Shown in pieces: positions 52,954 to 56,605 of a stretch of DNA of 64,000 bases. This DNA comes from Escherichia coli (GTDB lineage Bacteria; Pseudomonadota; Gammaproteobacteria; Enterobacterales; Enterobacteriaceae). The notes beneath the pieces are model-generated. The model ran no database searches. It was not told where the DNA came from and was given only the letters and a program-made list of their open reading frames with translations. A program made the translations under genes and the position numbers. Every line of letters begins with the position of its first letter. The stretch's first letter is position 1. The DNA is taken from NCBI RefSeq assembly GCF_003018255.1, contig NZ_CP027440.1; one strand, written 5' to 3'.

Positions 52954-53437
52954 TACAGCTTAATATTGCCCCGATAAGCGGGGCAATCTCTTATAATCCA
53001 CCATTCATAATTCCCATCAATATATAAACACATACATATCCAACCTTTATTTAACATTAATACTCAATTTAATGTTAAATCGTCATATGCAAGCGATATT
53101 GTAATTAAAGTAAGTGAATACATCACAACATAACTATTTGATATTATTTAAATACTTTACTTTCATTTCACCAGATTTAAATTTAATAATTCAAAAACAA
53201 TGTTGCAGGGATCACACTACACAGTATTGAACATTGTGATTGATATATTGCCCCCCTACTATCCATTAAACATAAATATTTGTTTCACCGAATAACAACA
53301 TATTTAAAAGAAACACAAAAGCATTCTCACTCTTTATTGAATTAATATTTATATTCACGTAACGAATTTATTAGCACCCTCTCAACAGTCGATATTCATC
53401 ATTATTATATATTTGCGTTATATAAGGAGATATATCC

Positions 53438-55234
53438 ATGTTTGATAAATATAGAAAAACACTCGTAGCCGGAACTGTGGCGATAACCCTGGGTTTGTCA
53501 GCATCGGGGGTGATGGCTGCGGGTTTTAAACCAGCGCCGCCTGCCGGGCAACTGGGTGCGGTCATTGTCGATCCCTACGGCAATGCACCACTGACCGCTT
53601 TGGTTGACTTAGATAGCCATGTTATTTCTGACGTCAAAGTTACCGTCCATGGGAAGGGCGAAAAAGGCGTAGAAATCAGCTATCCCGTGGGTCAGGAATC
53701 ACTAAAAACTTACGATGGTGTACCGATTTTTGGTCTTTATCAGAAATTTGCTAACAAAGTGACCGTTGAGTGGAAAGAAAACGGCAAGGTCATGAAAGAT
53801 GATTATGTGGTGCACACTTCGGCCATCGTCAATAATTACATGGATAACCGCTCTATATCCGATTTACAACAGACCAAAGTTATTAAAGTCGCACCGGGTT
53901 TTGAAGATCGCCTCTATCTGGTTAATACCCACACCTTTACCGCCCAAGGTTCCGATCTCCACTGGCATGGTGAGAAAGATAAAAATGCCGGTATCCTTGA
54001 TGCGGGTCCGGCAACTGGCGCACTCCCTTTTGATATCGCGCCCTTTACTTTCATCGTCGATACCGAAGGTGAATACCGCTGGTGGCTGGATCAAGACACT
54101 TTCTACGATGGTCGTGACCGCGATATCAACAAGCGTGGTTATCTGATGGGTATCCGCGAAACGCCACGCGGCACCTTTACCGCTGTACAAGGTCAGCACT
54201 GGTACGAGTTCGACATGATGGGGCAGGTGCTCGAAGATCACAAACTACCGCGCGGATTTGCTGACGCCACTCATGAGTCCATTGAGACGCCAAATGGCAC
54301 GGTACTGTTGCGCGTAGGTAAGAGTAACTATCGTCGCGATGACGGCGTACACGTCACCACCATTCGTGACCATATCCTCGAAGTTGATAAATCTGGTCGC
54401 GTTGTCGATGTATGGGATCTGACCAAGATCCTCGATCCGAAACGCGATGCACTGCTCGGCGCGCTGGATGCAGGTGCAGTTTGCGTTAACGTTGACCTTG
54501 CCCATGCAGGACAACAGGCAAAACTGGAACCAGATACACCGTTCGGCGACGCGCTGGGTGTAGGGCCAGGCCGCAACTGGGCGCACGTGAACTCTATCGC
54601 CTATGACGCAAAAGATGACTCTATCATCCTCTCCTCTCGCCACCAGGGTGTTGTGAAAATTGGTCGTGATAAGCAAGTGAAATGGATCCTTGCGCCCTCT
54701 AAAGGTTGGGAAAAACCGCTGGCCAGCAAGCTGCTGAAACCGGTTGATGCTAACGGTAAGCCAATTACCTGTAACGAAAATGGCCTGTGCGAAAACTCAG
54801 ACTTCGACTTTACCTACACCCAGCATACCGCCTGGATTTCCAGCAAAGGAACGCTCACCATTTTTGATAATGGCGATGGGCGTCATCTGGAACAACCTGC
54901 CTTACCAACCATGAAATACTCCCGCTTTGTGGAATATAAGATTGATGAGAAGAAAGGCACCGTTCAGCAAGTGTGGGAATACGGTAAAGAACGTGGCTAC
55001 GATTTCTATAGCCCGATTACCTCCATCATTGAATATCAAGCCGACCGTAACACCATGTTTGGCTTCGGTGGTTCTATTCATTTGTTCGATGTCGGGCAGC
55101 CAACCGTCGGTAAGTTGAACGAAATCGATTACAAAACCAAAGAAGTGAAAGTGGAAATCGACGTGCTGTCAGATAAACCCAATCAGACTCACTATCGTGC
55201 ACTGTTAGTCCGTCCACAACAGATGTTCAAATAA
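53438..55234 (+). CDS. assT: Periplasmic aryl-sulfate sulfotransferase AssT (598 aa)
   Basis: 598 aa with signal peptide; recognised as arylsulfotransferase family; followed by a dedicated DsbA-like/DsbB-like pair as in the established assT-dsbL-dsbI operon. Confidence 0.85.
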   Translation: MFDKYRKTLVAGTVAITLGLSASGVMAAGFKPAPPAGQLGAVIVDPYGNAPLTALVDLDSHVISDVKVTVHGKGEKGVEISYPVGQESLKTYDGVPIFGLYQKFANKVTVEWKENGKVMKDDYVVHTSAIVNNYMDNRSISDLQQTKVIKVAPGFEDRLYLVNTHTFTAQGSDLHWHGEKDKNAGILDAGPATGALPFDIAPFTFIVDTEGEYRWWLDQDTFYDGRDRDINKRGYLMGIRETPRGTFTAVQGQHWYEFDMMGQVLEDHKLPRGFADATHESIETPNGTVLLRVGKSNYRRDDGVHVTTIRDHILEVDKSGRVVDVWDLTKILDPKRDALLGALDAGAVCVNVDLAHAGQQAKLEPDTPFGDALGVGPGRNWAHVNSIAYDAKDDSIILSSRHQGVVKIGRDKQVKWILAPSKGWEKPLASKLLKPVDANGKPITCNENGLCENSDFDFTYTQHTAWISSKGTLTIFDNGDGRHLEQPALPTMKYSRFVEYKIDEKKGTVQQVWEYGKERGYDFYSPITSIIEYQADRNTMFGFGGSIHLFDVGQPTVGKLNEIDYKTKEVKVEIDVLSDKPNQTHYRALLVRPQQMFK

Positions 55235-55251
55235 TTAAGAAGGGAATAAAA

Positions 55252-55920
55252 ATGTCGAAATTAGGGATCTCATCACTATTTAAAACCATACTGCTTACCG
55301 CAGCTTTGGCTGTTTCATTTACCGCTTCTGCATTTACCGAAGGCACGGATTACATGGTTCTGGAAAAACCTATTCCGAATGCCGACAAAACGCTGATTAA
55401 GGTATTCAGCTACGCCTGCCCGTTCTGTTACAAGTACGACAAAGCGGTTACCGGTCCGGTATCGGAAAAAGTGAAAGATATCGTTGCTTTCACGCCGTTC
55501 CATCTGGAAACCAAAGGTGAATACGGCAAACAAGCAAGCGAAGTCTTTGCGGTCTTGATCAATAAAGATAAAGCAGCAGGCATTTCCTTATTTGATGCTA
55601 ACTCTCAGTTTAAGAAAGCCAAGTTTGCCTACTACGCGGCTTATCACGACAAAAAAGAACGCTGGTCTGACGGTAAAGATCCGGCTGCTTTTATCAAAAC
55701 CGGTCTGGATGCCGCAGGTATGAGCTTGGCGGATTTTGAAGCTGCACTGAAAGAACCAGCGGTTCAAGAAACACTGGAAAAATGGAAAGCCTCTTATGAT
55801 GTCGCCAAAATCCAGGGGGTTCCAGCCTATGTCGTTAATGGTAAGTACTTGATCTACACCAAGAGCATCAAATCCATCGACGCGATGGCAGACCTTATCC
55901 GTGAGTTAGCAAGCAAATAA
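55252..55920 (+). CDS. dsbL: Periplasmic thiol:disulfide oxidoreductase DsbL (DsbA paralog), 222 aa
   Basis: Signal peptide and thioredoxin-fold active site CPFC; position between assT and the dsbB-like gene. Confidence 0.85.
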
Positions 55921-55934
55921 CAGGGAAACAGGCT

Positions 55935-56605
55935 ATGGGTATTAAGGGAATGTGGAAAGACCTTCGCACATCACCAGTTGACACACTGGTCAGATGGCAG
56001 GAGCAACGCTTGTTGTGGTTGTTAATGGCCGTTGCGATGGGCGCGTTAATTATCCTGGCGCACTCTTTCTTCCAGATCTATCTCTACATGGCACCCTGTG
56101 AGCAATGTGTATACATTCGCTACGCCTGTTTGTGATGGTTATTGGAGGATTGGTTGCAGCGATCAACCCAAAGAACATCATCCTAAAGCTAATTGGCTGC
56201 GTGATGGCATTTTACGGCAGCATTTTGGGACTGAAGTTTTCGCTCAAACTAAACGATATCCACCATGCAGTACATAATCCGGATCCCGATTCACTGTTTG
56301 GCGTACAGGGTTGCTCTACCGATCCAACTTTTCCCTTTAACCTGCCGCTGGCACAGTGGGCACCAAATTGGTTCAAGCCTACAGGGGATTGTGGCTATGA
56401 CGCACCAATCGTTCCTGATGGCGTCACACTGAGCAGCACGCAACAGTGGTTTGTGGAAATGTATCAGCAATCTGAAGGCTGGTATCTGCTACCACCATGG
56501 CATTTTATGAATATGGCTCAGGCTTGTATGCTGGCTTTTGGTATGTGTCTGGTGCTGCTGGTCATTATGAGTGGCGCATGGGCGCTTAAAATCGTCAGAG
56601 GCTAA
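55935..56605 (+). pseudogene. dsbI: DsbB-like disulfide oxidoreductase DsbI, disrupted by a 1-nt frameshift (track ORFs 55935-56135 and 56105-56605)
   Basis: Seen in sequence: the first ORF ends ...[16 protein letters not shown] and the second continues in another frame as [15 protein letters not shown]; together they span a DsbB-like protein (CxxC in the first periplasmic loop, GDCGYD in the second). The frame switch lies near 56125-56132. Confidence 0.7.

Follow-up and report, generated by a model that had tools for sequence, protein, structure and literature searches.

The assT-dsbL-dsbI operon between ygiC and ygiD of an Escherichia coli genome: a predicted dsbI pseudogene and a conserved putative regulatory island in the AT-rich leader

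The genes assT, dsbL and dsbI have been described as a tricistronic operon (PMC7810732; PMC3526765), and in UPEC strain CFT073 they are reported at the ygiC-ygiD site (Grimshaw 2008, Malojcic 2008 and Totsika 2009, as cited in PMC7810732 and PMC6067686). DsbL and DsbI are a specific pair dedicated to AssT, unlike the canonical DsbA/DsbB of K-12, and DsbL cannot use DsbB (PMC3526765); ASST is also folded by DsbA/DsbB (PMC7810732). The two systems share their chemistry and folds, namely a thioredoxin-like CXXC oxidase and a quinone-linked membrane reoxidase. However, DsbL and DsbI are only distant kin of the K-12 proteins, and their scores fall under the DsbA and DsbB equivalog cutoffs. In Salmonella Typhi and Typhimurium, the same three genes are reported in the same order (Gallego-Hernandez 2012, as cited in PMC4264507; Lin 2009, as cited in PMC3526765), and the S. 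Typhi cluster is described as H-NS-repressed and LeuO-activated (Gallego-Hernandez 2012, as cited in PMC4264507). A more remote relative is Campylobacter astA, which encodes an AssT homolog with ~46% identity; DsbL-like and DsbI-like genes lie no more than a few kb from it, but in another gene order, without a compact three-gene operon and in an unrelated genomic context. Earlier publications thus already cover the operon and where it lies, the lack of it in K-12, its protein structures and their chemistry, and how H-NS and LeuO control the Salmonella ortholog. The strain analyzed here adds only one new detail, a single-base deletion that breaks dsbI.

The window, i.e., the whole 64,000-nucleotide stretch of E. 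coli DNA that was analyzed, carries this locus at 52954-56605. We regard it as the known tricistronic assT-dsbL-dsbI operon, as found in CFT073, with a probability of roughly 0.85. The open reading frame list places ygiC at 51793-52953 and ygiD at 56651-57466 (minus strand). Between them, all on the plus strand, lie a 484-bp intergenic leader (52954-53437), assT (53438-55234), dsbL (55252-55920) and the dsbI pseudogene (55935-56605). The intergenic gaps are only 17 nt (assT-dsbL) and 14 nt (dsbL-dsbI), and the single strong terminator lies 3′ of dsbI; together with the tricistronic operon of the literature, this argues for one transcription unit. The terminator (56615-56643) is intrinsic and bidirectional, serving dsbI on the plus strand and ygiD on the minus strand. 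The terminator scan showed a 12-bp stem, 8 of its pairs being G-C, and then a T-run; folding gave -25.5 kcal/mol (z = -5.7) on the plus strand and -28.3 kcal/mol (z = -7.3) on the minus strand. CFT073 has this gene spacing and terminator as well, and its leader (NC_004431.1, 3618373-3618856) is 99% identical to that of the window; in contrast, CFT073 dsbI is intact. A literature search by the locus tags c3785-c3788 and STM3192-STM3194 returned nothing relevant. The first-pass annotation, made from the sequence alone, had proposed assT-dsbL-dsbI between ygiC and ygiD behind a strongly AT-rich leader of about 480 bp. Reading-frame positions and Pfam/NCBIfam assignments agree with the former. The latter also holds, as the leader has 28.1% G+C versus 49.1% for the whole window, and a 64-kb scan placed the lowest-G+C 484-bp stretch within the leader region (minimum 26.9%, at 52981).

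Gene identities rest on domain and family matches, on near-complete identity to the solved CFT073 proteins, and on a gene order and site that are those of CFT073. AssT has 598 amino acids and matches Arylsulfotrans (PF05935, 5.4e-136) and Arylsulfotran_N (PF17425, 9.2e-29), corresponding to a beta-propeller and an N-terminal Ig-like domain. Residues 28-598 are 100% identical to the CFT073 enzyme (PDB 3ELQ/3ETS/3ETT/4P07; 3ELQ chain A, 571 aa), which indicates that the catalytic residues and the disulfide are those of the characterized enzyme. The 27-residue signal peptide is a hydrophobic N-terminus, MFDKYRKTLVAGTVAITLGLSASGVMA, directly preceding the first residue of the crystallized mature protein. 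Judged by this identity, AssT is a periplasmic, PAPS-independent aryl-sulfate sulfotransferase. DsbL (222 aa) has a CPFC active site, matches Pfam DSBA and is identical to PDB 3C7M at 194 of 195 positions over residues 28-222 (99.5%, one residue different). By the same token it is a DsbA-like periplasmic dithiol oxidase dedicated to AssT, encoded directly 3′ of assT. In the known pathway, AssT is exported to the periplasm, where it catalyzes a PAPS-independent transfer of sulfuryl groups, with phenolic sulfate esters as donors and phenols as acceptors. Its activity requires one disulfide bond, introduced by DsbL, and DsbL is in turn reoxidized by the membrane protein DsbI.

Our analysis also showed that dsbI is not intact, a correction to the first-pass annotation, in which the frameshift was missed. 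The gene is split into two reading frames, 55935-56135 (66 aa) and 56105-56605 (166 aa), which match Pfam DsbB and align with positions 2-64 and 62-217 of the DsbI profile, thus together covering 2-217. Against the NCBIfam DsbI equivalog (NF003304), the C-terminal piece scored 295 bits (cutoff 212) and the N-terminal piece 110 bits. Comparison with the closest genome, E. coli JNE23-011, revealed a 1-nt deletion (A) between 56126 and 56127; the undeleted sequence within 56100-56150 would read CGCCATGTTT. The dsbI frame is lost after codon 64 and ends at a stop in codon 67 (56133-56135). The truncated product keeps Cys55 and Cys58 and loses Cys127 and Cys153, so that no reading frame holds both periplasmic cysteine pairs. 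We predict that dsbI in this strain is a member of its family by descent but a non-functional pseudogene. Since DsbB is known not to serve DsbL, DsbL would most likely not be recycled once DsbI is inactivated, and any AssT activity would depend on the general DsbA/DsbB system, which is known to fold AssT. This phenotype is what we infer from the frameshift.

A single-base difference of this kind could also be a sequencing or assembly artefact, in which case the operon would be fully intact in the living strain. Among 1496 complete genomes with this stretch, none shares the deletion, which is thus private to this strain, and it is the sole difference from JNE23-011 across 49700-59900, a 10-kb stretch that is otherwise identical; both observations would fit an artefact. 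However, the missing A lies outside any homopolymer run (CGCC[A]TGTT), and over ~60 kb the two genomes differ by 143 substitutions with no other indel, which disfavors an indel-prone assembly. The locus has also decayed elsewhere, with assT annotated as frameshifted in GPEC172, and mutants in assT or dsbLI had no colonization defect (PMC7810732), suggesting that loss would be tolerated. On balance, we consider an artefact unlikely and retain the prediction of a genuine pseudogene.

The distribution of the cluster was surveyed within and beyond E. coli. Absence from K-12 had been stated in the first-pass annotation, and synteny comparison established it: MG1655 and the K-12 derivative S17-1 have only a 37-bp spacer between ygiC and ygiD. 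The cluster is also missing from O157:H7 and from ETEC H10407. UPEC and APEC strains do carry it, CFT073 (UPEC) at this very site, which gives some substance to the description of the locus as typical of ExPEC. That description is nevertheless overstated, because 1508 of 5426 complete E. coli genomes carry the cluster, among them Nissle 1917, the type strain and isolates from wild rodent, opossum, dolphin, swan and water. Presence therefore tracks lineage and not pathotype. Every other Escherichia sampled has the cluster in the same ygiC-ygiD slot, namely E. albertii, E. whittamii, Escherichia sp. MOD1-EC7003 and L004; the last two were counted as divergent Escherichia representatives, and L004 was deposited as E. 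coli, but its ygiC is only ~92% identical. In Citrobacter, Salmonella and Intestinirhabdus the cluster lies in the same tolC-zupT neighborhood, two genes away in the first two. The Salmonella genome examined, S. enterica subsp. arizonae, encodes proteins 85-87% identical to those of the window. Its cluster is located downstream of zupT, in contrast to the ygiC-ygiD slot seen here, and has an AT-rich leader of ~400 bp with the same conserved island described below, although the leader cannot be aligned outside the islands.

These observations bear on the proposal that the operon is a xenogeneic island, specific to ExPEC and of recent acquisition, with an AT-rich promoter that H-NS silences on account of its foreign origin. 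Its absence from the strains named above, its occurrence in UPEC and APEC, the 28% G+C of the leader and the term UPEC-associated used in the literature (PMC6067686; PMC8405906) are all compatible with such an origin. The shared slot and neighborhood across genera are not, and neither are the commensal, wildlife and water isolates among the carriers. Further, coding G+C is ordinary (assT 49.4%, dsbL 45.0% and dsbI 48.4%), and the cluster begins and ends exactly at the stop codons of ygiC and ygiD. No integrase, insertion sequence, tRNA or attachment site, or flanking direct repeat was found at the junctions. The marks of a genomic island, i.e., mobility genes, atypical coding composition and patchy restriction to a recent lineage, were thus not found. 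The assT, dsbL and dsbI gene bodies are outside the H-NS-bound gene list of CFT073 (PMC9765446), which scores gene bodies only and not the leader. The leader itself accompanies assT in every enterobacterial locus, which makes it a conserved regulatory feature rather than a foreign scar. Taken together, these findings make a recent foreign island very unlikely, and the label xenogeneic was not upheld. Instead, the locus would be an old resident of the tolC-ribB neighborhood in Escherichia, Salmonella and Citrobacter that some E. coli, K-12 among them, have probably lost. The 37-bp K-12 spacer forms a hairpin that is broadly similar in type to the ygiC-ygiD spacers of Salmonella and Citrobacter, which leaves room for an ancestral empty site. 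A search for the K-12 spacer hairpin inside the window, carried out as a test of K-12 as a deletion derivative, gave no match. Across genera these spacers are all REP-like or hairpin elements that are too short to decide homology.

The leader shows a combination of rapid sequence turnover and maintained composition. All 17 enterobacterial loci that were checked have about 400 bp of 20-30% G+C in front of assT, whatever their chromosomal slot. Outside the conserved island, identity between Escherichia species is 58-66%, and two E. coli leader alleles are 79% identical with flanks that are 98% identical. The first ~35 bp of the leader form the ygiC terminator hairpin region, with a terminator-like hairpin at 52965-52987 on the plus strand (9-bp stem AUUGCCCCG / CGGGGCAAU, 5-nt loop; -15.4 kcal/mol, z = -3.1). 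Its T-tract is weak, and it was not called by the terminator scan. The stem is identical in L004 and E. whittamii, where the loop letters differ, and MOD1-EC7003 has a hairpin of like shape and other sequence at this position. Farther downstream, 53049-53080 holds a distal conserved element, a perfect 12-nt inverted repeat (ATTTAACATTAA-N8-TTAATGTTAAAT) in columns conserved in the cross-genus alignment; the equivalent in Citrobacter and Salmonella is a single palindrome, TTTAACGTTAAA. This repeat is possibly an operator. At the 3′ end, a Shine-Dalgarno sequence (AAGGAG, 53424-53429, plus strand) lies 8 nt 5′ of the assT ATG. Here, ATATAAGGA is invariant in an alignment of ten sequences from four genera, and the sequences of E. 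coli, L004 and E. whittamii all have the same TTATATAAGGAGATATATCCATG. An Rfam search of 52500-57000 at a permissive E-value gave zero matches, and the putative 5′ UTR in the 3′ part of the leader had no significant or riboswitch-like structure (z = -0.6). Within the leader, no TyrR box, which was sought in view of the phenolic substrates, was found, and the small open reading frames encode only 20-42 aa and are without support.

A further element is a 75-bp conserved regulatory island on the plus strand (53189-53263), which aligns without gaps in 17 sequences from five genera. It contains a candidate -35 element (TTGTGA, 53234-53239) and, after a 17-nt spacer, a candidate -10 element (TACTAT, 53257-53262), from which a transcription start near 53269 is predicted. 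A CRP-like site, TGTTGCAGGGATCACA (53201-53216, plus strand), is a candidate activator site with a match of 8/10. All 17 sequences share GATCACA and, in the left half-site, TG; the -35 has an invariant TT and the -10 an invariant TA..AT. We infer the promoter and activator assignments from this pattern of conservation. By consensus alone, the promoter is a weak match (8/12), and a generic sigma-70 scan called no plus-strand site in the leader. Similarly, 27 CRP-like sites reach 8/10 in the 64 kb and the one at 53201 is no better than the other 26; apart from the conservation argument it is not significant by consensus count. In the model suggested by these features, transcription would start from the conserved sigma-70 promoter at ~53234-53262, with an activator-type site ~60 bp upstream and the promoter core embedded in ~450 bp of AT-rich DNA. 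We tentatively propose, at somewhat less than even odds, that the real control element is the island, i.e., a sigma-70 promoter (TTGnnn-17-TAnnAT) under an activator, CRP or another factor, that binds AAAACAATGyyG-N4-GATCACA ~60 bp upstream, and that the surrounding AT-rich DNA is kept only for its composition.

How H-NS would enter this picture is best considered by analogy to S. Typhi. On that model, H-NS probably binds the AT-rich leader DNA and would hold the operon off in ordinary culture, until LeuO or some other activator counters it in particular circumstances. Such silencing is plausible in E. coli, and the chromosomal assT (astA) is indeed not expressed in CFT073 under laboratory and assay conditions (PMC7810732). 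Extended AT-rich DNA does cover the candidate promoter, in a composition that is conserved across genera. That silence could instead reflect a missing activator or inducing signal, the leader being a low-constraint spacer with no H-NS role around a promoter controlled by a specific factor. The conservation of short islands amid fast drift, with alleles at 79% and flanks at 98%, speaks for this explanation, as does the absence of the three genes from the CFT073 ChIP-seq list noted above; any H-NS binding in CFT073 would be confined to the leader, if it occurs at all. The 10-bp high-affinity H-NS motif TCGATAAATT is also not enriched in the leader. The window has 88 matches versus 74 expected, and only two, each with 2 mismatches, occur here, one inside the leader (53240-53249) and one at the start of assT (53442-53451). 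On the other side, low G+C has been upheld in every genus despite sequence turnover, suggesting selection on composition, and H-NS repression is reported for the S. Typhi ortholog in PMC4264507. In addition, every annotated AT-rich gene nearby (ygiZ, the Hcp block and c3790) is H-NS-bound in the CFT073 gene list of PMC9765446. With this in mind, we consider a leader devoid of any H-NS role rather unlikely and keep H-NS silencing as a plausible reading.

In conclusion, the importance of these observations is small beyond correct annotation. In this strain dsbI should be annotated as a pseudogene, which probably leaves the dedicated DsbL/DsbI pathway non-functional. The conserved island offers a precise target for mapping the assT promoter of E. 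coli. If the island is indeed the control element, the at least two leader alleles of E. coli, which differ by ~21% around the island core, could give lineage-specific expression of the operon. As for the locus itself, ancestral to Escherichia and lost in some lineages of E. coli is a better description than ExPEC island.

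Our ORF map places the cluster between ygiC (51793-52953), which is preceded by nudF (minus strand), tolC and ygiB, and ygiD (56651-57466, minus strand), beyond which lies zupT. A 484-bp ygiC-assT gap (52954-53437), here termed the leader, is followed by assT (53438-55234), a 598-aa ORF with the PF05935 and PF17425 domains of aryl-sulfate sulfotransferase, and, 17 nt further on, by dsbL (55252-55920), a 222-aa ORF that is DsbA-like by Pfam/NCBIfam. After another 14 nt, dsbI (DsbB/DsbI by the same databases) is split between two ORFs that overlap in different frames (55935-56135; 56105-56605). 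A terminator hairpin with a 12-bp G+C-rich stem and a T-run (56615-56643) gives a strong fold on either strand (z = -5.7 and -7.3) and serves the convergent dsbI and ygiD. A 9-bp hairpin within the first 35 bp 3' of ygiC (52965-52987; z = -3.1) is probably the ygiC terminator and not part of the assT leader; Escherichia sp. MOD1-EC7003 has a hairpin of the same shape and different sequence at this position. Based on the ORF map, the family calls and the G+C content of the gap, the operon description and coordinates (52954-56605) of the first-pass annotation are correct; the frameshift in dsbI was overlooked there.

The observation holds and its location is right, but the system is already known in detail; the first-pass interpretation is partly right, as set out below. 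Residues 28-598 of AssT (the mature enzyme) are 100% identical to the crystallised enzyme of uropathogenic E. coli CFT073 (PDB 3ELQ and others), mature DsbL matches PDB 3C7M at 194/195 positions, and in CFT073 these genes occupy the same site, where the leader shares 99% identity with that of the window. assT-dsbL-dsbI has been described as a tricistronic operon in which AssT is a periplasmic, disulfide-dependent enzyme and DsbL/DsbI are a dedicated redox pair working without DsbB; AssT can also be folded by DsbA/DsbB, and assT and dsbLI mutants showed no colonisation defect (PMC7810732, PMC3526765, PMC8405906, PMC6067686).

The gene dsbI is not intact: its two pieces correspond to positions 2-64 and 62-217 of the DsbI profile. 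Over 52700-56900, the only difference from JNE23-011, the closest complete E. coli genome and our reference for the deletion, is the absence of an A between 56126 and 56127 (CGCC[A]TGTTT). The shifted frame ends at TGA 56133-56135, and the truncated DsbI retains Cys55/58, the first cysteine pair, but lacks Cys127/153, the second periplasmic pair. The extra base was present in all of the genomes matched by a 71-bp query across the site (1496/1496; best identity 98.6%). Because comparison with JNE23-011 gave 143 substitutions and no indels over 1-49688 and the dsbI deletion as the sole difference over 49700-59900, and because the missing base lies outside any homopolymer, the deletion is more likely, judging from the sequence, to be a real private mutation than an assembly error. 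The DsbL/DsbI branch of this strain would be dead, and any AssT activity would rely on DsbA/DsbB. The substitutions are unevenly spread, with at least 80 of the 143 in the first 7 kb and none in the 10.2 kb of 49700-59900, consistent with a recombination mosaic. A second, independent case of decay is seen in the chicken isolate E. coli GPEC172, where assT is annotated as frameshifted (locus L002, 1739-3534).

Of 5426 complete E. coli genomes, 1508 have the cluster; carriers hold a single chromosomal copy, at this site, bar two extra places. There were 1510 places in total; a plasmid record accounts for one of them, and two of the genomes had two places each. Its reported absence from K-12 is right, since the ygiC-ygiD spacer is 37 bp in both MG1655 and the K-12 derivative S17-1; among the 5426 genomes it is also missing from O157:H7, ETEC H10407 and other strains. 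The description of the cluster as typical of extraintestinal pathogens holds only in that ExPEC-rich lineages carry it. Carriers comprise UPEC and APEC strains, ST131 EC958 and ST648, but also the type strain, Nissle 1917, and strains isolated from wild rodents, opossum, dolphin, swan, river water and sea water. The cluster is not ExPEC-specific.

In an origin scan of one genome per species, the ygiC-ygiD slot held the cluster in all five Escherichia loci recovered, including those of E. albertii, E. whittamii, MOD1-EC7003 and L004, a locus deposited as E. coli, yet with a ygiC only ~92% identical to that of the window. Both Pseudocitrobacter loci have the same arrangement. The cluster lies two genes on, 3' of zupT, in Citrobacter (seven genomes), Salmonella enterica subsp. 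arizonae and Intestinirhabdus, where the order is ygiC, ygiD on the opposite strand, zupT and assT. Between genera, the cluster (3.7 kb) and the ygiD-zupT block (1.7 kb) have exchanged places without inversion. Budviciaceae and Edwardsiella have the three genes in an unrelated context. Within the window, the junctions coincide exactly with the ygiC and ygiD stop codons, a search there for repeats, insertion sequences and tRNA genes found none, and the coding G+C content of the cluster is 45-49%. The K-12 ygiC-ygiD spacer is, like its counterparts in Salmonella and Citrobacter, a hairpin of one general type, so it is conceivable that the site was ancestrally empty. The simplest reading is that the cluster has long resided in this neighbourhood and was lost from part of E. 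coli; Lin et al. reportedly reached the same conclusion in 2009.

The leader has a G+C content of 28.1% versus 49.1% for the window and contains the lowest-G+C 484-bp stretch of the whole 64 kb, in agreement with the extremely AT-rich leader of ~480 bp initially noted. Because every enterobacterial locus has ~400 bp at 20-30% G+C 5' of assT, in either slot, this composition is a conserved property of the operon and no mark of foreignness. Together with the shared Escherichia slot, the plain junctions and the coding composition, this argues against the label "xenogeneic". Leader identity among Escherichia species is only 58-66%. The leader of E. coli AST217 (locus L058, 755-1238) is 79% identical to window 52954-53437, with flanking ygiC and assT at 98%, and is most closely related to that of E. 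whittamii (89%). This second, strongly divergent E. coli allele suggests recombinational replacement or very fast evolution of AT-rich DNA around conserved islands. The blocks conserved against the fast-changing leader are a distal palindromic element (53049-53080), a 75-bp island (53189-53263) with a gap-free alignment across 17 sequences from five genera, and the final ~75 bp, to which the ribosome-binding site belongs. An Rfam family and a stable RNA structure were sought in the leader, and none was present.

The island may comprise a promoter and a CRP-like site. A candidate -35 (TTG, 53234-53236) and a candidate -10 (TAnnAT, 53257-53262), separated by a 17-nt spacer, fall on invariant island positions. 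Upstream, TG-N8-GATCACA (53201-53216), likewise on invariant positions, has CRP-like spacing and is centred ~61 bp before the predicted start; this match is statistically unremarkable by itself. A generic promoter scan did not call the candidate -35/-10, since the hexamers agree with the consensus at only 8/12 positions.

In S. Typhi, H-NS is reported to repress the cluster and LeuO to activate it, according to PMC4264507, and chromosomal astA (assT) of CFT073 is silent under laboratory conditions (PMC7810732). In CFT073 ChIP-seq data, the nearby AT-rich genes (ygiZ, those of the Hcp block, c3790 and the fimbrial genes c3791-c3794) are H-NS-bound, and the list of H-NS-bound genes passes from the ygiZ block directly to c3790, with assT, dsbL and dsbI missing (PMC9765446). 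Known bound and unbound genes confirmed that this list holds bound genes only; it scores genes and not intergenic DNA. By this list, the assT, dsbL and dsbI gene bodies are not H-NS-coated in CFT073. For E. coli, our estimate is a probability of about 0.6 that the leader is a site of H-NS binding and repression. The operon is probably silenced, and a multi-kilobase silencing filament across it is unlikely.

Two other blocks of the window were noted. One, AT-rich (26400-28100; ~31% G+C), contains ygiZ along with a hypothetical gene and a type VI secretion gene of the Hcp family; their CFT073 equivalents are among the most strongly H-NS-bound genes (PMC9765446, sheet 1E). The other, an 8-kb accessory block (36589-44831) between the gene for a TonB-dependent siderophore receptor and parE, codes for an MFS transporter, a GntR regulator, an ADP-ribosylglycohydrolase, a SIS-domain protein, a sugar kinase, a phytase-like esterase, a porin and a DUF2608 protein. 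CFT073 lacks it, the receptor adjoining parE directly, and window 30000-52000 is covered to at least 80% in only 121/5425 genomes. This block, apparently a rare catabolic island, has been studied less than the assT-dsbL-dsbI locus.

What is new at the latter is small in each case: a private dsbI frameshift, a predicted conserved promoter core, two divergent leader alleles, and an alternative slot in Salmonella and Citrobacter.
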